From the NCBI RefSeq assembly GCF_049243625.1, contig NZ_CP046975.1: a stretch of 32,000 nt of DNA; one strand, written 5' to 3'. How positions within the stretch are numbered: the stretch's first letter is position 1; every line of letters begins with the position of its first letter. Positions 12,503 to 29,413 of the stretch are shown here, piece by piece. Source of the DNA: Corynebacterium amycolatum. GTDB lineage: Bacteria; Actinomycetota; Actinomycetes; Mycobacteriales; Mycobacteriaceae. Below the pieces are notes generated by a model. It saw only the letters and a list, made by a program, of their open reading frames with translations, ran no database searches and was not told the DNA's origin. Position numbers and translations under genes: made by a program.

Positions 12503-12528
12503 AATATATTGACAATCATCGATATATT
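12503..12528. promoter_or_regulatory. Candidate ArsR operator: imperfect inverted repeat AATATATTGA-N6-TCGATATATT
   Basis: The arms match at 9/10 positions. The repeat is centred in the 72-bp arsR/acr3 divergent intergenic region and overlaps an AT-rich promoter-like sequence. Confidence 0.5.
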
Positions 12529-12544
12529 GGTTACACAGGAAACT

Positions 12545-13612: not shown

Positions 13613-13627
13613 AAAAAGGGTTCTGAA

Positions 13628-14056: not shown

Positions 14057-14559
14057 GCGGCAGAATCCAACAAAAGCCTCCTTATCGCCAGCGTAAGCCA
14101 CACGACTGCGCCGACGCCTGCGATGAGACCGAGGAGCAGGAATATCAGACCGACTCCCCAAAGCCCGGTGATGTCGTCAGTGCCGGCGATGATGCTCCAG
14201 CACAGGGTATAGCCGGCGACCGCTGCCCACCAGGTGGGCAGCAGGTTCAGAGTTGGGGCGGGCACGCGCATCATGGCAGAGGCAGTGAGGATGACCATCG
14301 CGAAGCCACTGCAGAAAACCTGCCATGGCGAGTAGTTGTATTCACCCTCGGGCATCCACGCGAGCGTACAAAAGCAGATTAAGAATGCGGCGACAAAGAC
14401 GAAAACCGTGTGCCCATATGCGATGCGCTCGCCGGACTTTTTGGCCAGCCACGCGGTACCCACCCACGCGAGAGCGGTGGGGATGGCAATAATCAACAGG
14501 TACGCGAGGAAGACTCCTGGCACCTCAGCCCAGGTGAAACTCGTCAGCATCGATGTCAT
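14053..14559 (-). CDS. Hypothetical integral membrane protein (about 5 TM helices)
   Basis: The 168-aa ORF has hydrophobic helices throughout. It converges on arsC and the stop codons overlap. I recognise no family motif. Confidence 0.6.
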   Translation of the reverse strand: MTSMLTSFTWAEVPGVFLAYLLIIAIPTALAWVGTAWLAKKSGERIAYGHTVFVFVAAFLICFCTLAWMPEGEYNYSPWQVFCSGFAMVILTASAMMRVPAPTLNLLPTWWAAVAGYTLCWSIIAGTDDITGLWGVGLIFLLLGLIAGVGAVVWLTLAIRRLLLDSAA

Positions 14560-15728: not shown

Positions 15729-16802
15729 GTGAAGAAAACATCTTTTTCCATCGCAGCAATTGTTAGCAGCACCCTGCTTCTATCTGCAACCCCAGCTCTT
15801 GCATTGGAAAACGGCGAACCCGCACCCGCAAATGCTGAAAGCAGTTCTGTGGCCGCGCTGAAGATTGGCAAAATCGGCAATTTCGGCGACTGCACCGGAA
15901 CGCTGGTTGCCGACCAGTGGGTACTCACTGCACGCCACTGCCTGGAGTCTGTGAACAACGAAGGGACCCAGGCCCGCATCGGCGGGAAGGTCTACGATGC
16001 CGATTCTTGGGCGCTGTCTCCAATGTCTGATGCGGGGTTGCTTCACCTGACTCAAAAGGTCACTGACGCAACACCCGCGAAGGTTTCCCGCGATATCCCA
16101 ACACCTGGGCAGACGGGAACCCTCTACGGATGGAGCAGCAGCTCGTCCATGGCGCGATCAGGGCAGCTCCCGATGACCAAGATGGTCGTCAAGGAACTGC
16201 TGGGCGGAGCACCGGCTGATGGAACTCCAGGTGAGGCTGCTCCAGATGGGGCCACTCCAGGTGAGGCTGTTCCGGGCGAAGCTGTTCCGGGCGATGCCAT
16301 GGAATCAATGGAGATGCAGCCAGGCGGAGCAATGCCGGGTGCAGTTAAGCCGGATGCAGTAAAGCCAGATGACTCCAAAACCGAGTCGATCCCCGCAGGA
16401 ACGGAAAGCATCCCAGCCGACGCTGCCATGATGCCAATGATTCAAAGCGCCATCCTGGACGCACATTCCGTCTCTGGCGCGGGTATGCAGGGCGGTGACT
16501 CCGGCGGCCCGTTCTTCGTCGACGGCAAGCTCGCGGGCCTGGCTACTGCCGGAACCTCCAATGGCGATCCTGACCTACCCTCCCCCAGCGCAGCTATCAC
16601 CACCCTCGCTGGCACGGCTGACTGGATCGATGACATCACCTCTGGCCGAGACACAGAAAGCGTGCTGACCGCGGAGAACACTCCTGCTCCGCCAAAGACC
16701 ATTCAGACCAGCGCCGATCACATGTGGGGTTACCTCGCCATCGCGTGCGTTGGCCTGGTTGTCGCAGCAGCCTGGTCGCGCATTAGGAATGGCCGACAGT
16801 AG
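15729..16802 (+). CDS. Secreted, C-terminally membrane-anchored trypsin-like (S1) serine protease with an internal Pro/Gly/Ala/Glu-rich repeat insertion
   Basis: A signal peptide is present (MKKTSFSIAAIVSSTLLLSATPALALE). The catalytic His lies in WVLTARHC, the Asp region in SDAGLLHL and the catalytic Ser in GGDSGGPFF. A C-terminal TM helix (WGYLAIACVGLVVAAAW) is followed by RIRNGRQ. Confidence 0.85.
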   Translation: MKKTSFSIAAIVSSTLLLSATPALALENGEPAPANAESSSVAALKIGKIGNFGDCTGTLVADQWVLTARHCLESVNNEGTQARIGGKVYDADSWALSPMSDAGLLHLTQKVTDATPAKVSRDIPTPGQTGTLYGWSSSSSMARSGQLPMTKMVVKELLGGAPADGTPGEAAPDGATPGEAVPGEAVPGDAMESMEMQPGGAMPGAVKPDAVKPDDSKTESIPAGTESIPADAAMMPMIQSAILDAHSVSGAGMQGGDSGGPFFVDGKLAGLATAGTSNGDPDLPSPSAAITTLAGTADWIDDITSGRDTESVLTAENTPAPPKTIQTSADHMWGYLAIACVGLVVAAAWSRIRNGRQ

Positions 16803-17479: not shown

Positions 17480-17524
17480 CCCGAATAACGAAGACCCCTA
17501 CCAGCGTTTACACCGGTAGGGGTC
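17480..17524 (-). terminator. Hairpin terminator following the displaced tRNA 3' fragment
   Basis: A 10-bp stem GACCCCTACC(17493-17502)/GGTAGGGGTC(17515-17524) is followed on the minus strand by TTCGTTATTCGG. It is homologous to the terminator at 29284-29328. Confidence 0.6.
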
Positions 17525-17530
17525 TCTTCT

Positions 17531-17570
17531 TAGTGGCGGGGGCTGGATTCGAACCAACGACCTCTGGGTT
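17531..17570 (-). repeat. Attachment-site direct repeat: displaced 3' half of tRNA-fMet (T-arm plus acceptor 3' strand, no 5' half)
   Basis: It aligns with 29337-29376 at an offset of 11,806 bp. The 14-bp block ACGACCTCTGGGTT is identical (17557-17570 and 29363-29376). The two internal mismatches (17544 and 17556) are compensatory in the T-stem, and the sequences diverge immediately at 17571. Confidence 0.85.
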
Positions 17571-17676
17571 CTCACCCTCATGTTCGAGCCACCTGCAGTT
17601 ATTGCCCTTTTACCTGCTGTTTAGAGAGGTATCAGTATACTGGCGCCTACTGGTCTTTACCGCAGATTACCGACTC

Positions 17677-18918
17677 TTAAGTCCCGTTTTGAGTCCCACT
17701 TTCTTCACCGAGATTCAAGGCGCCCCGCATAGCGTCTACATCAGTCCAATCCGTGTAGTTGCGCGCGTTCACGTCGACGTCATGCCCGAAATAGGCTGCA
17801 CGCACCTGGGCGGGTACCCCTCGCGCGATGGCCCGGTTATTGAGCACCGTGCGCCAGTCATGGGATCTCATTAAAGCGATGTGGTTGTCCTGGAGCTGCG
17901 CGCCAACATCTTTAAACAGAGCCGCTGACGCTTTCACGGCGTTGTCGGTGCGCCAGTGCGCCTTCTTGTCTCCTGGCGAAGGGATCAGTGGATCGGTCGT
18001 TTCTAGTCCGTCGAGCCGGTTTAACCAGAACTTTTCGACACGCTTGTCCAGGAACGGGATAGAACGGTCTCTGTGCGTTTTAGATTGCTCAGATGTAATG
18101 CTGATAGCGATCTGCCCATTAGCGACTTTTACAGAATACCTCGTCACTGCCAGTGCCTCGGAGATGCGAAGTCCCGTCCCCGCTTGCAGTAGTGCCAGCG
18201 CGACCACGTTGTCATGTTTTGCGATGGAGCTTGCTCGTCTGTCCGTGCCCGGTGGTAACGGTCTGGCGGTATCGCGTGCAATGAGATGGTCTACAACGGC
18301 GTCGTATTGGGCGTTCGTCAGGGCGTGACCACCTTGTGGTTTATTGCCCTTCTTGACCTCGCCGAGGTCGATGCTGATTCCGCGTAACGGGTTGTGGTCG
18401 ATAACACCCTCGCGGATGAGCTGATCCAGAATGTACTTGCTCACGACGGTGCGGGCCTGCCGTGCAGATTCCGACCCGTTTGCGGTGGCGATGGCCTGCA
18501 ATGCGTGTTCGAGAGTTCGGAATTTCACAGCTTCGCCAATGGCGTGTTTTCCTAGCTGTGCTTCGGCCTGCTTTAATGCGAGCTCATACCGGGCGCGCGT
18601 GTTCGGTCGCAGACGTGCCGCCCGGATGGCCGGCTTAGAGACGTCGGTAATGAACGCCGAGAAGTTCTTGCTCTTATCCCAATTGGTCGACGTCGAGTTG
18701 AGCTTGCTATCCCGCTTCTCGACGGCAATTCGCCGGAATTCCCCCTTTGTCCTTGCCCGGATTGTCGGGCGGTAAGTCGTTCCGTCCCATAGTCGGACCG
18801 TGATTTTCGCTTCGTATGGACCTCGCGGCGGTAAAGCATCAACGACGCGGTCGATGGAATCTTCCCCAAGGCTTAGTTTCGTTCTGGCGGCACGTATTTG
18901 CTTGGACATACACACCAC
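17677..18918 (-). CDS. int: Tyrosine-type site-specific recombinase (integrase)
   Basis: The C-terminal catalytic domain has R (GLRISEAL), H-x-x-R (SHDWRTV), FGHD and the nucleophile Tyr (NARNYTD). The N-terminal SAM-like domain has ARYELALKQAE. The start could be GTG 18918 or ATG 18909. It lies next to the att repeat. Confidence 0.9.
   Translation of the reverse strand: MVCMSKQIRAARTKLSLGEDSIDRVVDALPPRGPYEAKITVRLWDGTTYRPTIRARTKGEFRRIAVEKRDSKLNSTSTNWDKSKNFSAFITDVSKPAIRAARLRPNTRARYELALKQAEAQLGKHAIGEAVKFRTLEHALQAIATANGSESARQARTVVSKYILDQLIREGVIDHNPLRGISIDLGEVKKGNKPQGGHALTNAQYDAVVDHLIARDTARPLPPGTDRRASSIAKHDNVVALALLQAGTGLRISEALAVTRYSVKVANGQIAISITSEQSKTHRDRSIPFLDKRVEKFWLNRLDGLETTDPLIPSPGDKKAHWRTDNAVKASAALFKDVGAQLQDNHIALMRSHDWRTVLNNRAIARGVPAQVRAAYFGHDVDVNARNYTDWTDVDAMRGALNLGEESGTQNGT
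17680..17698. repeat. 19-nt repeat AGTCCCGTTTTGAGTCCCA (copy 1, overlaps the last int codons); candidate arm-type recombinase site
   Basis: It matches 29251-29269 at 18/19 positions. Each copy contains two AGTCCC half-sites 12 bp apart. The copies lie about 110 bp and about 94 bp from the two core copies, so they would flank the core in a circular attP. Confidence 0.6.
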
Positions 18919-18931
18919 TATAGACCCACTT

Positions 18932-18958
18932 TTGCAATAGGTTCGAATTTGTTATCAT
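18932..18958 (+). promoter_or_regulatory. Possible promoter (TTGCAA-N15-TATCAT) giving a leaderless transcript of the 161-aa ORF; divergent from int
   Basis: The -35-like hexamer is at 18932-18937 and the -10-like hexamer at 18953-18958. The ATG at 18966 is 7 nt downstream of the -10. The spacer is shorter than optimal. Confidence 0.3.
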
Positions 18959-18965
18959 TGCTGGT

Positions 18966-19451
18966 ATGGATCCTTCAGAACGTCTTCCAATTTGGTCTAC
19001 CGATGACGTCGCGCGCAGACGCCAGGAAGTGTTGTGCACGTTGGTTGACGATAATCACCCGCTTTATGTTGACGCTCGCGAATTGTTCACTCCCCCACTT
19101 TCCCGCGAGGAGGTCACACAGCTCTTGCTTACCGCCCTTGAAACCTACTGTGAAATCCGCGCGGTAGCTCGTGAACTAAGGTATCTGGACCCCATTGTGA
19201 AAAATGATACGAAAGGTCGTCAGAAGCGACACCCGCGTCTGCACGCTGTCCGCAAACACCTCCAGGCACGACTCGAGTTTCTGGAGAACGAAGCTGATCG
19301 AACGTTGCCGTTCACCTTTTATCGGCCTAACGCAGGACGACGCTTCGCCGCAGGTGAAGGACTGACGATGGATCTTATCGACCCTGTACCGGACAGTGTC
19401 GTGGCTACGATGTTTCCGCCGGTCTTTGATTTTCCCTCACAAGTAGGCTAA
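18966..19451 (+). CDS. Hypothetical protein (161 aa), element-encoded
   Basis: A clean ORF divergent from int. I recognise no motif. Confidence 0.55.
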   Translation: MDPSERLPIWSTDDVARRRQEVLCTLVDDNHPLYVDARELFTPPLSREEVTQLLLTALETYCEIRAVARELRYLDPIVKNDTKGRQKRHPRLHAVRKHLQARLEFLENEADRTLPFTFYRPNAGRRFAAGEGLTMDLIDPVPDSVVATMFPPVFDFPSQVG

Positions 19452-19534
19452 AATATAACCAGCCGTACCTGCGACGGTTGGCCACCGAGGCACCGGGTAC
19501 AATAAGAACCCAAGGTTTGCAACTCGGATATGCA

Positions 19535-19568
19535 GGCCCCCAAAGCGGATAACCGCTAGGCCGGGGCC
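19535..19568 (+). other. Nested GC-rich hairpin (GGCCCC..GCGG-ATAA-CCGC..GGGGCC) between the 161-aa ORF and xis
   Basis: The complementary arms were read directly. The following T-run is weak (CTTTC), so a terminator function is uncertain. Confidence 0.3.
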
Positions 19569-19592
19569 CTTTCAGCATGTCTGGAGCAAACC

Positions 19593-19820
19593 TTGAAAGG
19601 TGTTTCTAATTTAAAACTGGTCGATCATGCCGAGCCTATTGCGGTTAAAAGTTCGGTAGCGGCATCCCTGATCGGAATTGCCCCTCAAACTCTCAACAAC
19701 TGGCGTGTTCAGGGCAAAGGGCCCAGATACGCCAGCGTGGGTACCAACCTCGTCGTCTACAGAATCGCTGATATTGAGGCGTGGCTAGATGAGCATGTTG
19801 TCGGTGGTGAGAAGCCATGA
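19593..19820 (+). CDS. xis: Excisionase / AlpA-type helix-turn-helix DNA-binding protein
   Basis: The 75-aa protein carries AASLIGIAPQTLNNWRVQGKGPRYASVGTNLVVYRIADIEAWL, an HTH_17/MerR-like excisionase pattern. The TTG start is preceded by GGAG. Its stop overlaps the PolB start (ATGA at 19817-19820). Confidence 0.75.
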   Translation: MKGVSNLKLVDHAEPIAVKSSVAASLIGIAPQTLNNWRVQGKGPRYASVGTNLVVYRIADIEAWLDEHVVGGEKP

Positions 19821-22800
19821 CGACAGCGAACGAGGCGTGGAGCATAGAGATCTCCCCCAAGGACGCGCCCGACACGGTGCGTCATGAGCATGAACTCATC
19901 GAGCTTGACGTGAATGGCACCGAGTGGCAATCACGCCTCGTCGACACTGCCGTCGACGTTCCTGGGCGTTCTGACCCGTCGTACTTCACCGTTTTGGTAC
20001 GTCGTAAACCTCGATCTGTGGCTAAGGTCTCGGAGACCTTGGCCACGATTTCAGGCAGTTCTACGGACGTTCCTGCTGGTCAAGACCCTAAAGTCGTTTC
20101 AGGCCAAAATCCCCTAGGGGAGAGGCAGAATGGCCGGACCGGAGAGTCCGGCCATCGTGACTCCGGCCACCGTGACTCCGCAGCAGCAGCAGCGGTGGAA
20201 GCCGCTGCGGTTGCAGGGGTTGATGCCGGTGTCGATGTTAAGAGTTTCGGCCAGCTACCAACTGTGAGGTCGATGGGTAGTGGCGGTCGCCGGGCTCAAG
20301 TGATCGGGTTTGATACTGAGTTCACCTACCGCGAAGATGACCCCGCTAAGCGCGTCATCGATAGCTATCAGTTCGCCTGTACTGATGCTCTCGATGATGG
20401 TGTTCTCGTACAGGTGGTTGTGTTGCCTCTGGCGGGTGATCGCATCTACCTTGAGGATGCTCTCTACATCGTCAGTCTTGCAGGCGGTCTGCATGTCCTG
20501 TCACCCTCTCGGGAGCCTATCGATCCTCGTGGCGTGCTCGTCCGCGATGTAAGGAAACTCAACCCTCGGGGAAAATTTGACTACTCCGCCACGCGAGATG
20601 CGGCGTTCAAGGCTCGCATTGCCGTCGTCCTGGCGTGTCATTTCGGCAACGCCGATCTGACCGCTTTTCGGCGCCCTCCCGAGCAGCGCAATGGTGGGGA
20701 AAAACATTATGACATCCTCCGCCGCGTGACCTCTGCTTCGGGGGGCTTAGTTTCGCTGCAACCTGCCCGCTTCATGCGCAAGTCTGGCAAAGGCTCCAAC
20801 AGCTATCGCTGGTTGCCGTTCTCTGTGACCGTTCGTGACACGATGTGTCAGGCTGCACCCGGTCATAAGAGTCTCGCTGCTCTTGGCGATGTTTGCGGTG
20901 TTCCTAAGCTTGATGTTGGTTCCTCAATCGAGAATATGACCTCAATGCGTCGTGACGATCTGACGTCGTTCCTCGAATATGGGGTGAATGACGCGGTCAT
21001 CGTTGTTGAGTATCTGGCGATGCTGTGGGGTCTCAACATCGTTCCGCCTGTCACCCTTTCGGGTGCGGGTGCCAGTGCTGTCCGCGACGGAATCATGCGC
21101 TACATGGGCGACAAGGTGGTGAAGGACTTCCTCATCAACTTTCGCGGTCTCGTGCGGTTGACGGACCCTGAACCGTTTTTAGACCATGACCAACTTTCGT
21201 ATTACACCACACGAGAGTTGGTACCCGTGGACGGCGATGCCAATCAATCCCACACTGCGTGGAAAATGGCGTTTCACGGAGGCTGGAACAGTTGTCTGTC
21301 TCCTGGTCACCACCCTTACCCGACCTTCGATCACGATATCCAATCTGCGTACCCATCTGCGATGGCATCGGTGATTGATGTGGATTATGTGGGCGGTTGT
21401 ATCGAGGAGGTTGTGAAGGACCGGGTACTTACACTGGACGACTTTCCGTTAGGTCCCATCACCCCGTTAGTTGCCTATGTGAGTTGGAATTTCCCGGATG
21501 ATGTTGTTGCGCCTTGCTTGCCGGTGGTCGTCGGTGACTGCGTGTTATATCCACGAACGTCTGACGGTGCTGGAGCCGCGCAAGGTGACGATGTTGGGGG
21601 GTATGACGGGTTTCATGGTGCTTGGTGCGCTGGACCTGAGTTGTACCTTGCGTTGAAGCTGGGGGCGACGGTGCGTGTTCAGATTGGCTACCGCATGAGG
21701 TTGCGCATGCAGTCTGATAGTACTCCGTCCCGATCACTGCGCTTCGCCCTCCGACAGATGGTTGAAGACCGTGCGACTGCGAAGAAGATCTTCGGCAAGG
21801 GGTCGCTGGAAGAGCAGACCGTCAAGGTTGCGACAAACTCGGTCTACGGGAAGCTGGCCCAGGACGTCTCCGAGCGTAACGGGTGGGGTGCATGGGCTGA
21901 GGAGATGGAGTCTATTGGTGGGTCGTCCGTAACCTCTCCCTATCACGCGTCGATGACAACGTCGCTTGTTCGCGCTCTTCTTCTGGCGATGGCCAATACG
22001 ATTCCGATTCTGTCTGTCACGACTGACGGCTTCATCACGCCTGTTGAAGAGATTGAGCACTTTGATTGCTTTGGCATCGCGAATGTGTTCCGTGCCGCTC
22101 GTCGTGCGTTGGTAGGTGATCCGACGGTCTGGGAGATCAAGCACTACCAGGACGATCTAGTGAATTTCTCGACGCGTGGCAATGTGTCCTTGCTGGAACA
22201 CGGTGTGCTCGCTAAGGCTGGGTTGAAAGTTCCTGAGGAGGTTGAACGTGGGACCGTCGCGGAGCGTCGCTGGTTTCGCGATACCGCTCTTTCACGCCGG
22301 GGAAAGATACCTAACCCCTACACGTCTTTCCCAACATTTCGGGAGTTGTCGCGGTCCGTAAACCGGTTGGACTTCCACCCGGTGGATCGCACGCCTGAGG
22401 TCTCAACGGTGGACTTTGACCTAAAACGGCAGCCTCTACGTGGCACGCTCCGGGTTGATGTGATTGACGGCAACGAAATGGCGGGGTTCGACACTTGCGC
22501 GTGGGACTCAGTCGACGACTATAAGCATGCACGTGGGATCGCTGGTCACATGCAGTTGGTTCGGTATGGGACCACAGGTGTTGACCGTCCTACTGGGTGT
22601 CTGCGCACGGGTCATGATTGGGAGACCTGGTTTAAGCGTTTTGAGTCTGCTCGGGGTCGTCGTATCCGTACGGCTGACAGTGCCCTACTCACCGAACTCG
22701 TTGCCGCGCATAAGGCTGGTCTTGTCGTCGTTGACCGTTTGGCTGTTCGCGTTTCCGTGGCTCAGAAGGTGGGTTGGTTGTCCTCTTTGGGGATGGGTGA

Positions 22801-22927
22801 ATTCACCCGGGCGCAGTGGGATCACATGAGCAAGAAGGTTCGGCGTTCGACGGTGCTACGCGATGCCGATATGGATGCTGTTCGTGCCTTTGCCGATGAG
22901 CTGAATCGCGGTGATGGCTATGTCTAG
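19817..22927 (+). CDS. Family-B DNA polymerase with 3'-5' exonuclease domain, piPolB-like (primer-independent PolB candidate)
   Basis: ExoI is IGFDTEF (aa 163-169), ExoII is HFGNADLTAF (275-284) and ExoIII is EYGVNDAVIV (387-396). Motif A is DIQSAYPSAM (507-516), motif B is KVATNSVYGK (670-679) and motif C is the variant TTDG (735-738). These are followed by KHY (775-777) and STRG (785-788). Confidence 0.85.
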   Translation: MTTANEAWSIEISPKDAPDTVRHEHELIELDVNGTEWQSRLVDTAVDVPGRSDPSYFTVLVRRKPRSVAKVSETLATISGSSTDVPAGQDPKVVSGQNPLGERQNGRTGESGHRDSGHRDSAAAAAVEAAAVAGVDAGVDVKSFGQLPTVRSMGSGGRRAQVIGFDTEFTYREDDPAKRVIDSYQFACTDALDDGVLVQVVVLPLAGDRIYLEDALYIVSLAGGLHVLSPSREPIDPRGVLVRDVRKLNPRGKFDYSATRDAAFKARIAVVLACHFGNADLTAFRRPPEQRNGGEKHYDILRRVTSASGGLVSLQPARFMRKSGKGSNSYRWLPFSVTVRDTMCQAAPGHKSLAALGDVCGVPKLDVGSSIENMTSMRRDDLTSFLEYGVNDAVIVVEYLAMLWGLNIVPPVTLSGAGASAVRDGIMRYMGDKVVKDFLINFRGLVRLTDPEPFLDHDQLSYYTTRELVPVDGDANQSHTAWKMAFHGGWNSCLSPGHHPYPTFDHDIQSAYPSAMASVIDVDYVGGCIEEVVKDRVLTLDDFPLGPITPLVAYVSWNFPDDVVAPCLPVVVGDCVLYPRTSDGAGAAQGDDVGGYDGFHGAWCAGPELYLALKLGATVRVQIGYRMRLRMQSDSTPSRSLRFALRQMVEDRATAKKIFGKGSLEEQTVKVATNSVYGKLAQDVSERNGWGAWAEEMESIGGSSVTSPYHASMTTSLVRALLLAMANTIPILSVTTDGFITPVEEIEHFDCFGIANVFRAARRALVGDPTVWEIKHYQDDLVNFSTRGNVSLLEHGVLAKAGLKVPEEVERGTVAERRWFRDTALSRRGKIPNPYTSFPTFRELSRSVNRLDFHPVDRTPEVSTVDFDLKRQPLRGTLRVDVIDGNEMAGFDTCAWDSVDDYKHARGIAGHMQLVRYGTTGVDRPTGCLRTGHDWETWFKRFESARGRRIRTADSALLTELVAAHKAGLVVVDRLAVRVSVAQKVGWLSSLGMGEFTRAQWDHMSKKVRRSTVLRDADMDAVRAFADELNRGDGYV
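20147..20193 (+). repeat. Tandem 15-bp repeat (TCCGGCCAYCGTGAC x2) followed by (GCA)4 inside the PolB N-terminal extension
   Basis: Read directly. It encodes SGHRD-SGHRD-SAAAA in a low-complexity linker. Confidence 0.8.
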
Positions 22928-23042
22928 CACCCCTCCCCCTGGTCGGTTTGGTATGAAGCTTTCTCGCGGCCCTCCTATAGGCACTTTTATCGTCACAGAG
23001 ACGCTAACCATGCAAGCAACAGCACCCCAGCTAAGTCTTGAA

Positions 23043-23073
23043 CCATCGGGTGCTTAGACCGAGTTCCCGATGG
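23043..23073 (+). other. Hairpin CCATCGGG-N15-CCCGATGG downstream of the PolB gene
   Basis: An 8-bp perfect inverted repeat with no T-run. Function is unknown. Confidence 0.3.
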
Positions 23074-23109
23074 CACCAATACACCGCAACCCAAGATAAG
23101 GAGGAACAT

Positions 23110-23583
23110 ATGGAGCCACAATCGCCCCGAGCACCACGGATGCCGAGCGCCCCACGAGCGCCGCGCAGTGGAGCTAAAACAGGCGCGGAAATGGAGGAGA
23201 GCAGGTACGCCGCGGAGGAGTCTGCGAAGGGGCTTATCGCCGGTTTGGTTGGTCTAGACCGCGCCGATATTATCCGTCGTTCCAACCGAGTCCAGGAGAT
23301 TCTGGACGATTTTGCCCAGCACGCCCCAAAAGAAGAAGTGTCTTTGGAGCAGCTTAAAGCGGAGGGAGAAAAGGTTGACGCTGAGCTTGATCAGCTAGAG
23401 CAAACCCTCGATGAGCGCGCTCAGTCGCGGCGGAAAAAGCAGAATCAAGGTGGCTACCCACCGCAGCCGCCGCGGGAAAAGAAGCCTCGTGTCCCTCGGG
23501 TCAAAAACCCGCGATTCACCCCACTTTTCCAGAATGAACCAGAAGAAAAAGACACCAGTAAAGGATGGGAACCAGAACTATGA
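23110..23583 (+). CDS. Hypothetical protein (157 aa), Pro/Arg-rich N-terminus and coiled-coil centre
   Basis: The ATG at 23110 lies 5 nt after AGGAGG (23099-23104). The product contains LEQLKAEGEKVDAELDQLEQTLDERAQ. I recognise no family. Confidence 0.6.
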   Translation: MEPQSPRAPRMPSAPRAPRSGAKTGAEMEESRYAAEESAKGLIAGLVGLDRADIIRRSNRVQEILDDFAQHAPKEEVSLEQLKAEGEKVDAELDQLEQTLDERAQSRRKKQNQGGYPPQPPREKKPRVPRVKNPRFTPLFQNEPEEKDTSKGWEPEL

Positions 23584-23957
23584 TTACGAAGTCTCAGACC
23601 GCTTCGTCGGTAAAAAAGATTGAAGCTCTCCGCCAGGAGCGGGAGCAAAAAGAAGCCGAAGAAGCCAAGAAGGTTGAGGAGTTTAAGCGTCAATTAGGCG
23701 AAGTTCTCTACGCCTGCGCTTATGAGCCTTCAAGCAAGTGGTCCAAATTTCGCGGCGGTTCCGTAAGGGAACTGTTCGCAGAAATCGGTATACGGGAGGA
23801 AACCTCCTGTGAAGCGTCCGAGGAACACGAGAGCGCACATCGCGGGGCGGACGAAGGAGCCGATAAAGGCTTCGAAGTCGATTCCGAGGACTCTACAGAG
23901 TCAGAGGAATCCCCCGCAGGCCCGGAGCACGCAGACCCTTATGGTCTGCAAGCGTAG
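23580..23957 (+). CDS. Hypothetical acidic protein (125 aa)
   Basis: The ATG at 23580 overlaps the upstream stop (ATGA), which suggests translational coupling. The N-terminus is a charged helix and the C-terminus is acidic and disordered. Confidence 0.55.
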   Translation: MITKSQTASSVKKIEALRQEREQKEAEEAKKVEEFKRQLGEVLYACAYEPSSKWSKFRGGSVRELFAEIGIREETSCEASEEHESAHRGADEGADKGFEVDSEDSTESEESPAGPEHADPYGLQA

Positions 23958-23968
23958 GGCCAGAGGGT

Positions 23969-23989
23969 CGAGGGAGAGAATCTCCCTCG
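23969..23989 (+). other. Perfect 9-bp stem / 3-nt loop hairpin (CGAGGGAGA-GAA-TCTCCCTCG)
   Basis: Read directly, 12 nt after the stop of the 125-aa ORF. There is no T-run. It could be a terminator or part of a structured oriT/origin region. Confidence 0.4.
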
Positions 23990-24030
23990 CCAGCGCCACG
24001 AGGCACCGGAGGTGCCCGAGTGGCTTGCTG

Positions 24031-24070
24031 GCCGCCTGTTTGCCGCCTGCCGCCTGTTTGCCGCCTGTTT
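24031..24070. repeat. Tandem 11-nt repeats GCCGCCTGTTT (3 full copies plus one 7-nt partial), iteron-like
   Basis: The full copies are at 24031-24041, 24049-24059 and 24060-24070, and the partial GCCGCCT is at 24042-24048. Confidence 0.85.
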
Positions 24071-24101
24071 GTGAGGGCCGTCTTTGACGGTGGCGAGTAC
24101 G

Positions 24102-24126
24102 CCTGAATCTGCCCCGCAGATTCAGG
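24102..24126. other. Perfect 11-bp inverted repeat CCTGAATCTGC-CCC-GCAGATTCAGG; candidate oriT hairpin
   Basis: Read directly. It lies about 105 bp upstream of mobC and the relaxase, the usual position of an oriT recognition hairpin. Confidence 0.5.
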
Positions 24127-24232
24127 GGGCCGACACCGGAGAAGCGTGACCCTTACAAACAGACTGTGGCCCTGGCTGCATCAGCAGTCGGGGCCACCCT
24201 GCCACAGTAAGCACGATAAGTAGGAGGTGGAT

Positions 24233-24595
24233 ATGCGAGACAAGTTCTCGACATATTCGCGTACAACCGTGCGCCTCGATAAGGATTTAGACCGATTTGT
24301 CGAGGAGGTCGCACGGGTCGTAGGGGTGCAAAAGGCCGTCGTGTTCCGGGAAGCTCTCTATGTCCTCGCGGAGGAGGAGAGCGTGCTGACGCAAAAGCGT
24401 TTGGCCCCGGACACGCTGCGCCGCCTGGACGAGATGAACGACCAACTGCGGCGGATTGGCGTCAATCTAAACCAGTTGGCTCGCCGCGCGAATATCGACG
24501 GCGTGGCCCCCGTGTCTGAGGCTGTAGAAAGCATTGGCTCCGAGGTTTCTTCTCTTCGCAAAGAGGTGAAGGACTTTGTCCACAATCAAGATTAA
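24233..24595 (+). CDS. mobC: MobC-family relaxosome accessory protein
   Basis: The C-terminal motif LRRIGVNLNQLARRAN is the MobC-family signature. The N-terminal region looks like an RHH fold. The ATG at 24233 lies 5 nt after AGGAGG (24222-24227). Confidence 0.8.
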   Translation: MRDKFSTYSRTTVRLDKDLDRFVEEVARVVGVQKAVVFREALYVLAEEESVLTQKRLAPDTLRRLDEMNDQLRRIGVNLNQLARRANIDGVAPVSEAVESIGSEVSSLRKEVKDFVHNQD

Positions 24596-26186
24596 CTACA
24601 GCCAGAATATCCGCGCGGCAACGGTCTACGCCGTCTATGGAACGGCAGACAATGCCCGCAAGGGTGAGGTGCGAGCCGATGCTTTATGCACGGTTCAACC
24701 TAACGCTGAATCGTTTTCTCCGGAGGCTACGGCTGGCCGTTGGTCGGGTGTGGACTTCATGGAAGCCAGTGTGGAAGAAATGGAGCGATATGCTCCGGCT
24801 CAGCGCACTGACGAAGCAATTATTTATATCCAATCGTGGGCTAAAGACGAGCTGGATAAGGATAACCCGGCCGATGTAGCTCGGGCTAATGCGGCTGGCT
24901 CAGAGCTGGCGATGCGGCTGACGCAGGGCACGGGAGTTCCGTTTACCGTGGCTACGCACACCGACAGTAAAAGCGGCTGTGTCCACAACCATATCGTCTT
25001 TGCCAACCACGATACGCAGACAAAGAAGGCTGCACCTCGGGATATGCGCAACTGGTACAAGCTGCGCAATATCAACGACGAGCTGATGCGCGATTTGGGG
25101 ATGCGTGTCCTGGAGCGAGAGCCGGAAATATCGCTGCTTCCTGCTGAGCGCAGGGCACGCAAGGAGGGCAAGTCCACAGACTCGACGGGCCTGGGCGTGG
25201 ATGAGCTGACCGCAGCCACGTGGGCTGATTTTGCCCGCAAGCGCATGGATGAGCTGTGCGCGGATAAACAGGTGGCAGATGCTGACGACCCACTGGCGAA
25301 GGCAGTAGAGATTGCTGGCAAATACAACCTGTCTCTAAAAGTGCAGCCCAACTCAAAAACCGAGGGTGAGTCGCTAACCGTGGCCCTGGTCGACGACGAC
25401 GGCGAGGATGCCTACTTCACGAACACCACGAAGGCCGGACGTACTCGAAAGCGTAAAGCAGCTAAAGCTGGCTCAAAATTGGGCCGCAGCTACTCGCTAG
25501 AGGGTGTGACCGAACGCGTTAACGAGGCCCAATCAGCCCTTCTTGCGCGGCAGCTTGCAGCACTTCAAGCCAATTCAACCGATGACGACCTGGAGGCGAA
25601 ATACGGCTCCAGCCTTCTCGATGACGAGGAGGAAGAAAACTATAACAACCAGGAGGTATTCAATCATGGTGTCAGTGACCGAGATGACGAAGCTAGCCCA
25701 AGCAGCGGCGAAAGGCAAGATGGACAGCGTCTTGAAGGTTCTCAGCCCACGCCTGGACAAGGCGGAGAAGGCTATCAAGACGCTGCAGGAGAAACTGAAG
25801 AGTCTGCCGGAGAATACAGGGGACATTCTCAGTTCTCTGCCCAGCGACTTCTCGACGAGGTTGACGCAAGCGGAAAGCGAATTAAGGAACGTAAAAAGCA
25901 ATCTCGCCGCAAACAAGAACTACGTGAGCAGCAGTCACTTCCAAGTAACGATGATGGAAGTGCAGCAGATGATCACCGGGCTGATAAGGAACATCGAGGA
26001 TCTGCCCAACGGCCTGGAGGGGGTAAAAGGGTACCTAATCGAGATAAGCGAGCAGATGTCGCGTCTGACAAGGATGCAACAGCTGGTACTCAAAGCAGCC
26101 GAAAGCCCCATCCATCTCGACAAGGATTCCAGCCAAGCAGTAGCCCAGAGCCTGAACGCTCAGATGACTTCGAGCCTGACTTCTAG
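24576..26186 (+). CDS. Relaxase/mobilisation nuclease (MobA/VirD2-type) with a long disordered C-terminal tail
   Basis: The His-triad motif is HTDSKSGCVHNHIVFANHD. N-terminal Tyr candidates lie in AATVYAVYG. The TTG start overlaps the mobC 3' end by 20 nt. The last 521 nt or so overlap the next gene in another frame. Confidence 0.8.
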   Translation: MSTIKINYSQNIRAATVYAVYGTADNARKGEVRADALCTVQPNAESFSPEATAGRWSGVDFMEASVEEMERYAPAQRTDEAIIYIQSWAKDELDKDNPADVARANAAGSELAMRLTQGTGVPFTVATHTDSKSGCVHNHIVFANHDTQTKKAAPRDMRNWYKLRNINDELMRDLGMRVLEREPEISLLPAERRARKEGKSTDSTGLGVDELTAATWADFARKRMDELCADKQVADADDPLAKAVEIAGKYNLSLKVQPNSKTEGESLTVALVDDDGEDAYFTNTTKAGRTRKRKAAKAGSKLGRSYSLEGVTERVNEAQSALLARQLAALQANSTDDDLEAKYGSSLLDDEEEENYNNQEVFNHGVSDRDDEASPSSGERQDGQRLEGSQPTPGQGGEGYQDAAGETEESAGEYRGHSQFSAQRLLDEVDASGKRIKERKKQSRRKQELREQQSLPSNDDGSAADDHRADKEHRGSAQRPGGGKRVPNRDKRADVASDKDATAGTQSSRKPHPSRQGFQPSSSPEPERSDDFEPDF

Positions 26187-26700
26187 CCTGGAACCGCTGG
26201 TAGAAGTAGCTGTATCTGAGGCAATGTCGAAAGAGTCCGAAAGCCTGCACAAGGCAGCAGAAGCATCTAAGAAGGCTCGCAGCGCCCTGCTCCAGGAGAA
26301 GGAGTCCAACGAAAAGCTGCTGGAGAAGATACGTGCAGAGCGCAAAAAGTACAACGACGACATGGAAAAGTCGAACACGAACTTTATTAAGGCCTGCATG
26401 TCTGCCTCGTGGATTGCAGCCAGTGTTCTCTTCGTTGCTATCGCACTCGTTGCTGTCGGAGCCTTGGGGAACGGGCTGCTAAGTATGCTCGGCATACCCG
26501 ACGGCGTGTCTGCCTTGTGGGGTCACGTCCAGGAGGCCAACGGCATCGGCCCAACACTGGGCTGGTTGGCGTTAACACTTATCGTCATAGGGGTTCTTAT
26601 AGCGCTTATGACCTGGATGTTGTCCCAGGCTGCGCCGGGTATTGCTCACTTAGTCGAGGAATACCGTCGCAATCACCCGAGGAAAGAAACGAACCACTAA
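25666..26700 (+). CDS. Coiled-coil protein with C-terminal transmembrane helices (344 aa), out-of-frame overlap with the relaxase 3' region
   Basis: The ATG at 25666 lies 9 nt after AGGAGG (25651-25656). A long heptad-like N-terminal region is followed by two hydrophobic helices (WIAASVLFVAIALVAVGALG and LGWLALTLIVIGVLIALMTWML). Confidence 0.7.
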   Translation: MVSVTEMTKLAQAAAKGKMDSVLKVLSPRLDKAEKAIKTLQEKLKSLPENTGDILSSLPSDFSTRLTQAESELRNVKSNLAANKNYVSSSHFQVTMMEVQQMITGLIRNIEDLPNGLEGVKGYLIEISEQMSRLTRMQQLVLKAAESPIHLDKDSSQAVAQSLNAQMTSSLTSSLEPLVEVAVSEAMSKESESLHKAAEASKKARSALLQEKESNEKLLEKIRAERKKYNDDMEKSNTNFIKACMSASWIAASVLFVAIALVAVGALGNGLLSMLGIPDGVSALWGHVQEANGIGPTLGWLALTLIVIGVLIALMTWMLSQAAPGIAHLVEEYRRNHPRKETNH

Positions 26701-26742
26701 CTAGAACACGTGCACCGTAAAAAGTAAAAATCCCCACAACAC

Positions 26743-26772
26743 AGCGTAGCGGTTAACCGCTACGCTTCTTTT
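26743..26772 (+). terminator. Rho-independent terminator after the mobilisation module
   Basis: A perfect 10-bp stem AGCGTAGCGG/CCGCTACGCT with loop TTAA is followed by TCTTTTA. Confidence 0.8.
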
Positions 26773-26805
26773 ATGCTCTTCCTATGCCCCAACTTTGCAA
26801 CAGCA

Positions 26806-26842
26806 CCAATAAACTGGCGCCCCGGTTATAAGTTGGGGCGCC
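26806..26842 (-). terminator. Candidate terminator of the SulP gene
   Basis: An 8-bp GC stem GGCGCCCC(26816-26823)/GGGGCGCC(26835-26842) is followed on the minus strand by AGTTTATT. Confidence 0.45.
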
Positions 26843-26869
26843 AAGTCGATGTGCTCGAGTCGGGGGATG

Positions 26870-28429
26870 TTAGTGGCCGGTGCCAAGCCGGCCAGACAGG
26901 CGGTTCAGCCGGTCCTGACTGGGACCGTCGAGCCCGATAATGGACACGGTTTTGCCTCTGTCCTGGAACTTCTGCGTAATCGCGTCAAAGGTCGCGACCG
27001 TGGAGGCATCCCAGATCTCCGCCTCAGTGAGATCAATAGTGATATGACGGGCAGAATCGGTGTAATCAAAGCGATAAACCAGGTCATTGCTTGATGCCCA
27101 AAACAACTGGCCATGCACCCGGTAGGTACGAGTATCAATCTCGCCATCGCCGTCGCCGTCGATCTCGGAGACCTTTTCAATGGAAGCGATATGTGCCATC
27201 CGACGGGCGAACATGATCATCGCGGTGACCACACCCAACACCACACCAATGGCCAGGTTGCTGGTGGCTAGGGTGGCAATAATCGTCACGGCCATAACAA
27301 TGGTCTCAGAGACCGGCATGAGTTTAAGGGTGCGTGGATGCACCGAGTGCCAGTCGATGGTGCCGACCGAGACCATGATCATGATTGCCACCAGCGCAGC
27401 CATCGGGATCATGCCAACGATGTCGCCCAGTGCCAGGACCAGGACCAGCAGGAACACACCGGCTAACAGGGTGGATAGGCGGGTACGTGCCCCGGATTCG
27501 CGGACGTTGATCATGGTTTGACCGATCATCGCGCAGCCACCCATGCCGCCGAAGAAACCGGAGGCAATATTAGCCACCCCCTGTCCCCAGGATTCACGAG
27601 TTTTATCGGAATGAGTGTCGGTGATGTCATCGACGAGCTTGGCGGTCATCAACGATTCCATGAGACCGACCACGGCCATGGCCAGGGCATAAGGCGCGAT
27701 GATCTGCAGGGTCTCCAACGTCCACGGCACGTTCGGAATAAACAGGGACGGTAAGGTCTCCGGCATCTTGCCCATGTCCGAGACCGTCGGGACAGTCAAA
27801 CCGGCGGCAATGACCAAACCGGTGAGCACGATAATCGTGACCAGCGGGGCGGGGATCACACTGGTGAGCTTGGGGAAGAAAATCATGATCACCACACCCA
27901 AGCCGACGAGTGGGTAGACTATCCAAGGCACATCAATGAGGTGTTCGAGTTGGGCGGTGAAAATCATAATGCCCAGTGCATTGACGAAACCCAGCATCAC
28001 CGATCGGGGGATAAAACGCTGAAGTTTCGCCACACCGAGGGCGCCGAGCACGATTTGTAGGACACCGCCCAACAGGACGGTGGCGATGAAATAATCCATC
28101 CCGTAACCACGCGCCACAGGAGCAATGACTAGGGCAATAGCCCCGGTGGCGCCGGTGATCATTGCCGAGCGGCCACCGGTAAAGGCGATCGCAATGGCCA
28201 TGACTACCGAGGAAAACAGACCCATGGCTGGGTCAACACCGGCAAGGATGGAAAAGGCAATGGCCTCAGGGATCAGCGCCAGGGATACCGCCAGTCCGGC
28301 CAGAATCTCTATACGGATACGGGCGGGGGAAGAAAATGCGTAACGGAAGGATGCGATGATCCCGGTAGGGGCATCAGCGCCGTCTGGACTCAGGAGGGGG
28401 CGGGGGGCCGCCGTGCTAGTTTCAGTCAT
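26870..28429 (-). CDS. SulP-family inorganic anion transporter with C-terminal STAS domain
   Basis: The 519-aa protein has a polytopic N-terminal domain (AFSILAGVDPAMGLFSS, GQGVANIASGFFGGMGGCAMIGQTMIN) and a STAS-like tail (YRVHGQLFWASSNDL...IDLTEAEIWDASTVATFDAI). Confidence 0.9.
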   Translation of the reverse strand: MTETSTAAPRPLLSPDGADAPTGIIASFRYAFSSPARIRIEILAGLAVSLALIPEAIAFSILAGVDPAMGLFSSVVMAIAIAFTGGRSAMITGATGAIALVIAPVARGYGMDYFIATVLLGGVLQIVLGALGVAKLQRFIPRSVMLGFVNALGIMIFTAQLEHLIDVPWIVYPLVGLGVVIMIFFPKLTSVIPAPLVTIIVLTGLVIAAGLTVPTVSDMGKMPETLPSLFIPNVPWTLETLQIIAPYALAMAVVGLMESLMTAKLVDDITDTHSDKTRESWGQGVANIASGFFGGMGGCAMIGQTMINVRESGARTRLSTLLAGVFLLVLVLALGDIVGMIPMAALVAIMIMVSVGTIDWHSVHPRTLKLMPVSETIVMAVTIIATLATSNLAIGVVLGVVTAMIMFARRMAHIASIEKVSEIDGDGDGEIDTRTYRVHGQLFWASSNDLVYRFDYTDSARHITIDLTEAEIWDASTVATFDAITQKFQDRGKTVSIIGLDGPSQDRLNRLSGRLGTGH

Positions 28430-28481
28430 AGATGTCCAATCTTTGAGGGGATAGGTAACTGGGCGAACGCCCGAAAGGAAT

Positions 28482-28508
28482 CCAACCCTCTAGTAACTTT
28501 AGGTTTGG
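28482..28508. promoter_or_regulatory. Candidate MerR-type operator: 27-bp imperfect dyad CCAACCCTCTAGT-A-ACTTTAGGTTTGG
   Basis: 10 of 13 positions are complementary. It lies in the SulP/MerR divergent intergenic region. A second 12-bp perfect palindrome, GGGCGAACGCCC, is at 28461-28472. Confidence 0.4.
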
Positions 28509-28598
28509 TGATGGTGGTCATGGTAGCGGGAGTTTTACTCAACCGCCAACCCAGGCACAGGAACCCGTGGGCAACATCACCGTGAAGGAGAACAGGCA

Positions 28599-29003
28599 AT
28601 GCAAAACAGTAATTTCAAGATCGGCGAGGTCGTTGACCAGACGGGGTTGTCGATTCCCACCTTGCGTTATTATGACAACGTCGGCCTGATTACCCCATCG
28701 GGGCGTAGCCCTGGTGGGTTCAGGCTTTATAGTGAGGCTGATGTACGTCGTGTTTTGCTGGTGCGACGGATGAAACCGCTGGGGTTTACTCTGGATCAGA
28801 TGCGGGAATTCCTGGAAGCTGCGGAGATTCTTCATAGTTCAGATGGCGGGCAGGACAGTGATACCGCACAGCAGGCACGGAGTAATGCCAAGGCCACCCT
28901 TGCCGACATTCGTGAGGAGACGCGCACCCGCTACGAAAAGCTACGCAAGCAAATTGCCTACGCTGAGGAATTCCTCGATCTGGTCAACACCCTGGCACCC
29001 TAA
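28599..29003 (+). CDS. MerR-family transcriptional regulator
   Basis: The N-terminal HTH is FKIGEVVDQTGLSIPTLRYYDNVGLITPSGRSPGGFRLY, followed by a dimerisation helix. The gene is divergent from the SulP gene. Confidence 0.85.
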   Translation: MQNSNFKIGEVVDQTGLSIPTLRYYDNVGLITPSGRSPGGFRLYSEADVRRVLLVRRMKPLGFTLDQMREFLEAAEILHSSDGGQDSDTAQQARSNAKATLADIREETRTRYEKLRKQIAYAEEFLDLVNTLAP

Positions 29004-29193
29004 ACTGCCCCCATCCTTCGCAGGGAGAAAAAGACCATCGTATTGAATGCGCTCTGTCGAATCGCGTTCCAGATGAAGTGGACGAACGCCCGCGGCCTCT
29101 CCGGAGTGGATGGCGATAGTACAGAGGACTTCTGAAATCCGTGCAGACGACTCCTCAAAACGACACAGTCATCCAAGGTCACAAAATCGAAAA

Positions 29194-29236
29194 TTGTCAC
29201 TTAACCCCATCACTTCCAAACCGGCTTAAGTGACAA
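29194..29236. repeat. Perfect 11-bp inverted repeat TTGTCACTTAA-N21-TTAAGTGACAA near the right end of the element
   Basis: Read directly. An extra GTCAC word lies at 29178. The repeat sits in the non-coding arm between merR and the att core. Confidence 0.7.
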
Positions 29237-29250
29237 AATGCCATCGCTAA

Positions 29251-29269
29251 AGTCCCGATTTGAGTCCCA
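29251..29269. repeat. 19-nt repeat AGTCCCGATTTGAGTCCCA (copy 2); candidate arm-type recombinase site
   Basis: It matches 17680-17698 at 18/19 positions. Confidence 0.6.
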
Positions 29270-29283
29270 GGACGTGCGCCTTA

Positions 29284-29328
29284 AGAGAAATAACTAAAGC
29301 CCCTACCAGTGTTTCTCCTGGTAGGGGC
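29284..29328 (-). terminator. Rho-independent terminator of tRNA-fMet (element-supplied)
   Basis: An 11-bp stem GCCCCTACCAG(29299-29309)/CTGGTAGGGGC(29318-29328) is followed on the minus strand by TTTAGTTATTTCTCTT. Confidence 0.75.
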
Positions 29329-29336
29329 TTGGAAGT

Positions 29337-29413
29337 TGGTAGCGGGGGCAGGATTCGAACCTACGACCTCTGGGTTATGAGCCCAGCGAGCTACCGAGCT
29401 GCTCCACCCCGCG
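29337..29413 (-). tRNA. Initiator tRNA-fMet (anticodon CAU), chimeric: its 3' part is supplied by the integrated element
   Basis: The minus strand reads CGCGGGGTGGAGCAGCTCGGTAGCTCGCTGGGCTCATAACCCAGAGGTCGTAGGTTCGAATCCTGCCCCCGCTACCA (77 nt). It has a 1:72 C-U mismatch, three consecutive G:C pairs closing the anticodon stem, a CAU anticodon (plus-strand ATG at 29377-29379) and an encoded CCA. Confidence 0.9.

Follow-up and report, generated by a model that had tools for sequence, protein, structure and literature searches.

Organization of the element and its insertion in the initiator tRNA gene

A 32,000-nucleotide stretch of the Corynebacterium amycolatum chromosome (contig NZ_CP046975.1; referred to below as the window, whose positions are used for all coordinates) carries an 11,806-bp integrative element in the gene for the initiator tRNA, tRNA-fMet. 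The features of the element and of its attachment sites are listed in Table 1. At its left end is an integrase gene (int) on the minus strand, whose product is named a tyrosine-type recombinase/integrase in NCBI records. Divergent from int runs a plus-strand array in the order orf161, the excisionase gene (xis), a gene for a family-B DNA polymerase of the piPolB type, orf157, orf125, a candidate origin of transfer (oriT), mobC, a relaxase gene and a gene for a predicted membrane protein; a SulP-MerR cargo cassette lies between this array and the right end. The xis stop codon overlaps the piPolB start codon in an ATGA (19817-19820), and because of this overlap the two genes are probably translationally coupled.

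The single tRNA gene of the window, a tRNA-Met(CAT) called by ARAGORN at 29337-29413 on the minus strand with Rfam in agreement, reads 5'-CGCGGGG...GGGCTCATAACCC...CCCCGCTACCA and bears the marks of an initiator: C1 and position 72 do not pair, and the anticodon stem ends in three G:C pairs next to its loop. A repeat finder pairs 17530-17577 with 29336-29383 as a 48-nt direct repeat of 85% identity at an offset of 11,806 bp. An earlier examination of this DNA from its letters alone (the sequence-only reading) had described a 40-nt copy of the tRNA 3' half at that offset; the offset stands, but the copy is not exact, 36 of the 40 positions matching, and the sole exact repeat block is 14 nt long (ACGACCTCTGGGTT, 17557-17570 = 29363-29376). 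The likeness extends to the hairpin that follows the tRNA (17484-17522 versus 29289-29327, 79% identity).

Occupied and empty versions of the site were found through an exact-protein look-up of the trypsin-like protease gene on the left flank (15729-16802); the loci retrieved in this and the other comparisons carry L numbers. The C. amycolatum contigs L001, L002 (GCA_054653755.1, strain JCM 7447), L008 and L009 are occupied and have the gene order of the window, whereas in L003 (CP068168.1), L004-L007 and L010 the site is empty, the protease gene being followed after about 1 kb by the UPF0182 gene. By the counts of the look-up tool there are ~7 occupied and ~10 empty contexts in this species. 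In the empty-site genomes the flanking proteins are 100% identical to those of the window, as is the flanking DNA, and the sequence at the site, ...ttagtggcgggggctggattcgaaccaacgacctctgggtt|atgagcccagcgagc..., is window 17530-17570 fused exactly to 29377-29413; ARAGORN calls a tRNA-Met there (11803-11879 in L003). An empty site with an exact junction in the same species, which the sequence-only reading had predicted, excludes a chance repeat. The element is an 11,806-bp insertion with the crossover within the 14-nt core, which maps to the anticodon-stem/variable-loop part of the tRNA. Its right end, previously drawn at 29413, must be moved to this core, since the empty sites show 29377-29413 to be the 5' half of the host tRNA gene.

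The gene inventory of the sequence-only reading (int, xis, PolB, MobC, relaxase and a cargo pair) was recovered in full by Pfam and PHROG searches. Its statement that the element has neither terminal inverted repeats nor Cas1 was likewise borne out: the repeat finder gave no terminal inverted repeats at the ends, and domain searches gave no Cas1 in any open reading frame (ORF) of the element. No phage structural genes were found among the element ORFs with PHROGs and Pfam, PHROG matches being limited to int, xis and the polymerase, plus a marginal tape-measure match (E 0.0057) on the 178-aa membrane protein. The 20-nt sequence AAGTCCCGnTTTGAGTCCCA occurs in two copies in the window versus 0 expected, placed nearly symmetrically about the core as candidate P' and P arm-type integrase sites (Table 1).

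Locus L092 (GCA_900461385.1) is ~95% identical to the window in both flanks and element and encodes a 1041-aa piPolB variant; an extra Glt_symporter gene fragment lies between its protease gene and attL (L092 1684-2529); the region of the left junction is variable. A truncation of UPF0182 in the window strain was considered and rejected, as the flanking gene simply extends past the window end.

Table 1. Features of the element, its attachment sites and the adjoining tRNA gene parts, in window coordinates.
Feature	Coordinates	Strand	Basis or remark
Native terminator hairpin of host tRNA-fMet	17492-17525	minus	inverted repeat; same in empty-site genomes; now split from its gene and outside the element
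attL, displaced native 3' part of host tRNA-fMet	17530-17570	minus	direct repeat; core 17557-17570
Tyrosine integrase, 413 aa (alternative start 18909 = 410 aa)	17677-18918	minus	PF00589 3e-08; PHROG_1 1e-17
Candidate P' arm-type Int site AAGTCCCGTTTTGAGTCCCA	17679-17698	plus	109 nt from core; overlaps int stop codon
Promoter-like site	18931-18958	plus	ahead of orf161; array divergent from int
orf161	18966-19451	plus	first gene of the array; no family match; 100% conserved in L013 and L014
Excisionase/HTH_17 protein, 75 aa	19593-19820	plus	PF12728 2.9e-05; PHROG_66 excisionase 5.8e-07
piPolB-type family-B DNA polymerase, 1036 aa	19817-22927	plus	motifs, AlphaFold model, homologues, PHROG
orf157, charged, low-complexity	23110-23583	plus	gene called in public assemblies; no family match
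orf125	23580-23957	plus	gene calls; overlaps orf157 by 4 nt; no family match
Candidate oriT region, 256 nt	23960-24215	plus	several hairpins; directly upstream of mobC
MobC relaxosome accessory protein, 120 aa (longest ORF from 24227)	24233-24595	plus	PF05713 1e-08; 120 aa as in public gene calls
Relaxase, 536 aa, MobA/VirD2-type nuclease domain	24576-26186	plus	PF03432 9.4e-13
Predicted membrane protein, 178 aa	26164-26700	plus	last core gene; gene calls
Strong terminator closing the plus-strand array	26743-26766	plus	
SulP-MerR cargo cassette	26777-29033	both	exchangeable part
SulP-family anion transporter with STAS domain	26870-28429	minus	PF00916 8.5e-49
MerR-family regulator, cysteine-free	28599-29003	plus	MerR_1 2e-15; divergent from SulP
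Candidate P arm-type Int site AAGTCCCGATTTGAGTCCCA	29250-29269	plus	ends 93 nt before core
Element-borne terminator hairpin, now ending the hybrid tRNA gene	29297-29330	minus	best terminator-like site of the region: 13 pairs + T run
attR, element-supplied tRNA 3' part (29337-29362) + core (29363-29376)	29337-29376	minus	
Host-derived tRNA-fMet 5' part, outside the element	29377-29413	minus	same sequence in empty sites, where it adjoins the native 3' half

A family-B DNA polymerase of the piPolB type

Database searches gave 145 homologues of the 1036-residue polymerase. Almost all come from Actinomycetota, and 'hypothetical' is the usual annotation; PF03175 or the UniRef name DNA-directed DNA polymerase is attached to a few. 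PF03175 (DNA_pol_B_2) matches 8 of the 22 homologues that were aligned, and residues 647-743 of the window protein match PHROG 11768 'DNA polymerase' (6e-7). An AlphaFold model built from the 22-homologue alignment (predicted local distance difference test score, pLDDT, 79; predicted template-modelling score, pTM, 0.76) was compared with the PDB by Foldseek. The top match was phi29 DNA polymerase (2py5_B, E 4e-10, target TM 0.56). Family-B polymerases of archaea, eukaryotes and viruses came next, and PolBs dominate the 141 matches at E <= 1e-3. A profile of the 22 polymerase sequences run against PDB sequences returned only one spurious haemagglutinin match.

The exonuclease motifs ExoI FDTEF (D166/E168) and ExoII NDA (N391/D392) are invariant in the family alignment. 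The PolA motif reads DIQSAYPS (505-513; invariant columns DxDxQxAYP), the PolB motif KvatNSvYG (670-678; invariant columns KxxxNSxYGK, 670-679) and the PolC motif SVTTDG (733-738), in which S733, T735, T736, D737 and G738 are invariant in 22/22 homologues. Motifs A and B are 163 aa apart and motifs B and C 67 aa, spacings near those of phi29. Among the traits of piPolBs are the insertions TPR1 and TPR2, also present in protein-primed PolBs; here the segment 678-704, where TPR2 would be expected, is modelled at pLDDT < 50.

By the definition of 2017, SxTTDG replaces YxDTDS in piPolBs and a longer motif, KH-X8-KTRG, replaces KxY; primer-independent DNA synthesis was shown biochemically for the Escherichia coli enzyme only (Redrejo-Rodriguez et al., Cell Reports 2017). 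In the window protein the second of these signatures reads KH (775-776)-YQDDLVNF-STRG (785-788), so that the KH, the 8-residue spacing and the TRG are kept. KH-X8-xTRG is conserved in 22/22 aligned homologues and in ~70 related loci; over ~70 Actinomycetota/Clostridia loci (L013-L091) the position of residue 785 is occupied by Thr or Ser and in rare cases by Val, Ile, Asn or Cys. Judged from these alignments, the motif would be better written KH-X8-xTRG.

A tblastn search of PLSDB matched the polymerase only to plasmids of Staphylococcus, Pseudosulfitobacter and Fusobacterium, pSE-12228-03 being the best. BLASTP against the polymerase of that plasmid (1109 aa) gave E 4e-40 and 27% identity over 651 columns, with all motifs in register. 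pSE-12228-03 has been named a plasmid pipolin, Staphylococcus and Pseudosulfitobacter are listed among pipolin hosts, and a Clostridia-Actinobacteria subgroup of piPolBs has been described (Mateo-Caceres and Redrejo-Rodriguez, NAR 2024; PMC11551731). The family of the window polymerase spans Actinomycetota and Clostridia, as this published subgroup does. From its motifs, its predicted fold and its homologues, the 1036-aa protein is identified as a piPolB of the Clostridia-Actinobacteria subgroup. It may synthesize DNA independently of a primer, a property to be assigned with caution in view of the K-to-S/T change.

Outside the PolB core, the model contains a small, confidently folded N-terminal domain (residues 1-65) followed by a disordered linker of ~70 residues (69-141; the two together at window 19817-20239), and an all-helical C-terminal domain of ~130 residues (900-1036; window 22514-22927). 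The piPolB matches in L033 (C. falsenii, 10001-14304) and L043 (C. pacaense, 10001-14002) extend over 4.0-4.3 kb, against ~3 kb, and the polymerase genes of these two loci may be interrupted by an insertion.

The element rebuilds the initiator tRNA with a heterologous 3' arm

In the occupied state the tRNA is a hybrid of the host 5' part and the 3' arm of the element. Since the element supplies both the tRNA 3' end and a terminator, the gene remains intact in this hybrid form. The hybrid departs from the native tRNA in three ways: one T-stem pair is switched from T:A to A:T, a compensatory change; C72 has become U72, which is still unpaired with C1; and CCA is encoded where the native gene has CTA. 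The imperfection of the direct repeat results from this heterologous, element-borne tRNA arm. At 45/45 positions the arm agrees with the attL copy of Corynebacterium sp. HMSC04H06 (L013), and its identity to the attL copy in C. tuberculostearicum is 96%; because of this identity, the comparison suggests that the element evolved in the HMSC04H06/C. tuberculostearicum species group and reached C. amycolatum later. An integrative element can exchange part of an essential initiator tRNA gene for a heterologous, compensated version.

A distant pipolin of Collinsella stercoris (L061, CP085935.1), whose integrase is 35% identical to that of the window, also lies beside a tRNA-Met(CAT), and this tRNA is ~91% identical to the window tRNA-fMet over 77 nt. 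The Collinsella locus holds a tRNA-Met gene and two partial tRNA copies, one of them inverted (L061 926-989, 3468-3544 and 3649-3701), an arrangement that suggests repeated or tandem integrations at tRNA-Met.

Mobilisation module, cargo and spread between species

The predicted relaxase carries a histidine triad (HTDSKSGCVHNH), is of low complexity in its C-terminal half and shares 26% identity with its counterpart on pSE-12228-03, which is typed MOBP. The candidate oriT contains a perfect 11-bp inverted repeat (24102-24127) and GCCGCCTGTTT repeats (24031-24070); folded as single-stranded DNA it reaches -74.8 kcal/mol, with z = -6.8 versus shuffles, and its placement directly upstream of mobC fits an oriT. 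Pfam and PHROG searches found no type IV secretion system (T4SS), type IV coupling protein (T4CP) or FtsK-like domain in any element ORF. With a predicted relaxase and MobC, a candidate oriT, and neither a T4SS nor a coupling protein, the gene content is that of an integrative mobilisable element (IME).

The SulP-MerR cassette is 98% identical to cassettes on plasmids of C. glutamicum and C. stationis, and PADLOC, run on the element in search of defence cargo, found no system, only a generic match to the helix-turn-helix of MerR. The cargo of a Corynebacterium pipolin can be a transporter/regulator cassette shared with plasmids instead of defence genes. Over 17530-26779 the window is 96% identical to the sister elements of Corynebacterium sp. 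HMSC04H06 (L013) and C. tuberculostearicum (L014), and beyond that point the similarity ends; the divergent region of L013 holds an insertion sequence (IS) fragment and ABC/ECF transporter genes. In GCA_000156615.2 (L095) the whole element is present at the same site with 99.2% identity over 11,886 bp, while the adjoining UPF0182 gene is only 68% identical, and this disparity indicates a recent transfer of the element between species.

In L014 (CP175770.1) a 1.3-kb insertion (6712-8015) lies in the 3' end of int, relative to window position 17837; the product in the NCBI annotation has 376 aa, and the insertion is probably an IS that inactivated int.

The layout of a tRNA 3' copy, int, xis, piPolB, further genes and the intact tRNA recurs in distant relatives with exact repeats of 36-44 nt, as in Trueperella pyogenes (tRNA-Arg, 44-nt repeat, ~8 kb), Gordonia amarae (tRNA-Lys, 36-nt repeat, ~11 kb) and C. 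nasicanis (tRNA-His, 41-nt repeat, ~13 kb). Only a few relatives encode a relaxase homologue. As the relaxase is sporadic and int-xis-piPolB constant, these three genes form the core of the family and the mobilisation module is an add-on.

Comparison with known pipolins and other integrative elements

Actinomycetota pipolins with a tyrosine recombinase integrate in tRNA genes and have detectable direct repeats (Mateo-Caceres and Redrejo-Rodriguez, NAR 2024, Figure 4 'pipolin 4'; PMC11551731). The same study reports complete pipolins in Corynebacterium, designates some Gram-positive pipolins that have MOBP/MOBV relaxases without a T4SS as 'IME-pipolins', and describes pipolins as built from a minimal core and from cargo that they exchange with plasmids (PMC11551731). 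Like these tRNA-integrated and IME-pipolins, the window element is small, encodes a piPolB as its hallmark together with a tyrosine integrase and a relaxase but no T4SS, has direct repeats that overlap a tRNA gene, combines a minimal core with exchangeable cargo, and shows gene exchange with plasmids. It differs from them in its target, the initiator tRNA-fMet, in its non-defence SulP-MerR cargo, and in its heterologous att repeat (36/40) with a foreign tRNA 3' arm. On each point examined the element fits the 2024 description, and its class is already known.

The remaining claims of the sequence-only reading can be judged against this background. Of the four checks that it had suggested, three were run or approximated, and each favoured its interpretation. 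Its assignment of the large protein to PolB agrees with the phi29-like predicted fold, PF03175 in 8/22 homologues, the PHROG 11768 match and the motifs, and its identification of a pipolin agrees with the similarity to the pSE-12228-03 polymerase (E 4e-40), SxTTDG and KH-X8-xTRG. Its view that the element would be mobilisable and not self-transmissible accords with the gene content, a relaxase and MobC being present and no conjugative-pore genes having been found. The self-replication that it ascribed to the element is a proposal. The combination of polymerase, integrase and relaxase that it had pointed out is not new, IME-pipolins and tRNA-integrated Actinomycetota pipolins having been described before (PMC11551731), and the current picture of pipolins is unchanged by the element. 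What is particular to it is an initiator-tRNA target with a compensated heterologous arm, cargo outside defence, a clade-wide STRG variant, and the existence of natural variants in public genomes.

The pipolin of E. coli 3-373-03_S1_C2 resembles the element in SxTTDG, KH-X8-xTRG, integration in a tRNA gene, att-like direct repeats and the pairing of a recombinase with an excisionase. Its piPolB belongs to the other major group (Proteobacteria, against Clostridia-Actinobacteria for the window element) and has KTRG where the window polymerase has STRG; the latter has in addition a ~140-residue N-terminal domain plus disordered linker and a ~130-residue C-terminal helical domain. Relaxases are missing from the E. 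coli pipolins, whose cargo serves mostly in defence. pSE-12228-03 (Staphylococcus epidermidis ATCC 12228, 8 kb) shares a homologous polymerase, a relaxase and the small size, but exists as a free circular plasmid, encodes a serine resolvase, has KTRG in its polymerase, and has neither a tyrosine integrase nor att sites. Classical IMEs and actinomycete integrative elements share int-xis, a tRNA 3'-end target that the incoming DNA rebuilds, a module of MobC, relaxase and oriT, and dependence on a helper conjugative system; they differ in having no DNA polymerase, any replication proceeding through Rep proteins and host polymerases.

Interpretation and alternative explanations

Precise insertion at the core, reconstitution of the tRNA by element DNA, polymorphism within the species, spread between species and modular cargo are observed at this locus and its relatives, and we are confident that the 11,806-bp element is an integrative mobilisable pipolin ('IME-pipolin') that entered the C. 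amycolatum tRNA-fMet gene by tyrosine recombination. In the mechanism that we propose, Int and Xis would excise the element as a circle and so restore the native tRNA, and through xis-piPolB coupling the polymerase would be made together with the excisionase. piPolB would then copy the excised circle by primer-independent, strand-displacing synthesis. MobC and the relaxase would nick the DNA at an oriT within the structured stretch 23960-24215, and transfer would take place through the conjugative apparatus of a co-resident element, a helper being invoked because the element encodes no such apparatus. In the recipient, Int would reintegrate the element at tRNA-fMet, guided by the arm-type sites on either side of attP.

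Several observations weigh against this interpretation. Searched by sequence against Pfam, where even E 10 was allowed, NCBIfam and the PDB, the 1036-aa protein matches nothing, and it is assigned from its predicted structure, its motifs and family-level hits. The lysine of KTRG is a serine here (residue 785, window 22169-22171), and in the E. coli piPolB the K623A substitution impaired primer extension (Redrejo-Rodriguez et al., Cell Reports 2017); given this substitution and that effect, primer-independent activity cannot simply be assumed. The oriT is a candidate. The attP junction was not seen in JGI metagenome contigs searched with a P-arm-to-attP pattern, and no polymerase relative was seen in IMG/VR viral contigs, both being weak evidence; contigs that encode the exact integrase represent only chromosomal C. 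amycolatum contexts, which is also weak evidence. No Corynebacterium plasmid with the polymerase was found in PLSDB by tblastn. As neither a junction nor a viral or plasmid copy was found, these searches provide no evidence for an episomal form. Lastly, L094 (GCA_054053265.1, 2300-9500) and L097 (GCA_001815175.1, 8000-9500) keep int joined to mobC-relaxase-SulP-MerR at the same site with 18905-24054 gone, and the persistence of such piPolB-less copies implies that the polymerase is unneeded for maintenance in the integrated state.

The element could instead be an ordinary IME that never replicates autonomously and in which PolB is an accessory (for damage tolerance, repair or anti-phage activity) and not a replicase. 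Such an explanation would account for derivatives that stay at the site after losing piPolB, for the failure to find an episomal copy or attP junction in PLSDB, JGI and IMG/VR, and for a KTRG motif in which the K is not kept; it also accords with a literature that calls the role of piPolB unclear, mentions damage tolerance and frames pipolins as defence islands. The derivatives, however, have lost orf161-xis-piPolB-orf157-orf125 and the int start codon as well, with TTTG microhomology at the int-mobC junction. The loss of xis and of the int start leads us to regard L094 and L097 as dead remnants, decayed by what appears to be deletion, which counts against the accessory role. A further argument against an accessory role comes from the distant relatives, in which the int-xis-piPolB trio is conserved and the relaxase sporadic, so that the polymerase appears central and not cargo, and from the ATGA overlap, which would tie its expression to excision. 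On balance we hold the accessory role to be possible, if unlikely. The related proposal that piPolB was inserted later into a plain IME was rejected in view of the lost xis and int start, the deletion-type TTTG junction and the conserved trio.

A fixed, immobile genomic-island remnant whose repeats are relics would also explain why the att repeat matches at only 36/40 positions, why the excision product was not seen in JGI contigs and why decayed derivatives exist in other genomes. Yet every core gene is intact, the imperfection is due to the heterologous tRNA arm and leaves the 14-nt core exact, the site is polymorphic in C. amycolatum (~7 occupied versus ~10 empty), and a 99.2% identical copy stands beside a flank of 68% identity, which together make a remnant improbable. 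An origin as a prophage or phage satellite, or as a self-synthesising element of another class such as a casposon, a polinton-like or a protein-primed linear element, lies still further from the evidence. The closest solved structure to the polymerase is indeed that of phi29, a protein-primed phage enzyme, but capsid, terminase, portal and lysis genes are absent, Cas1, expected of a casposon, and terminal inverted repeats, expected of casposons and of protein-primed linear elements, were not found, though a terminal protein could go unnoticed in sequence alone, and direct repeats border the element at its tRNA target, where a tyrosine recombinase integrated it; we consider this origin highly improbable.

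Within the preferred interpretation, an integrative mobilisable pipolin, a more specific and doubtful proposal can be put forward tentatively, namely that the element is a replicative IME. ATGA coupling of xis and piPolB would make excision trigger primer-independent amplification of the circle despite the lost KTRG lysine, the relaxase would be given many substrates, the element would persist between hosts as a plasmid does, and the initiator tRNA of each host would be rewritten with a foreign 3' arm. If so, that arm (T-stem swap, U72, CCA) could affect host fitness or translation. Irrespective of this proposal, the element is a compact, fully delimited and evidently recently mobile pipolin in a clinically relevant genus of skin bacteria and opportunists. 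The public empty sites, sisters with other cargo and deletion derivatives make it a good system for testing the role of piPolB in vivo and for asking whether piPolB cooperates with excision and conjugative mobilisation.

Other observations

The L094 derivative adjoins genes for an erm leader peptide, an rRNA adenine methylase (erm-type resistance), a resolvase, a TetR regulator and SMR efflux.

Elsewhere in the window, a 473-aa ORF on the plus strand (7836-9257) has no Pfam match and is called at different lengths among the compared contigs (473 aa in L003, 457 in L002, 401 in L010 and 365 in L004); it may encode a variable or repeat-containing protein. An FMN riboswitch (RF00050, 91.8 bits, E 4.7e-20) lies at 1511-1680 on the minus strand, upstream of a minus-strand gene, and is an ordinary chromosomal feature unrelated to the element.

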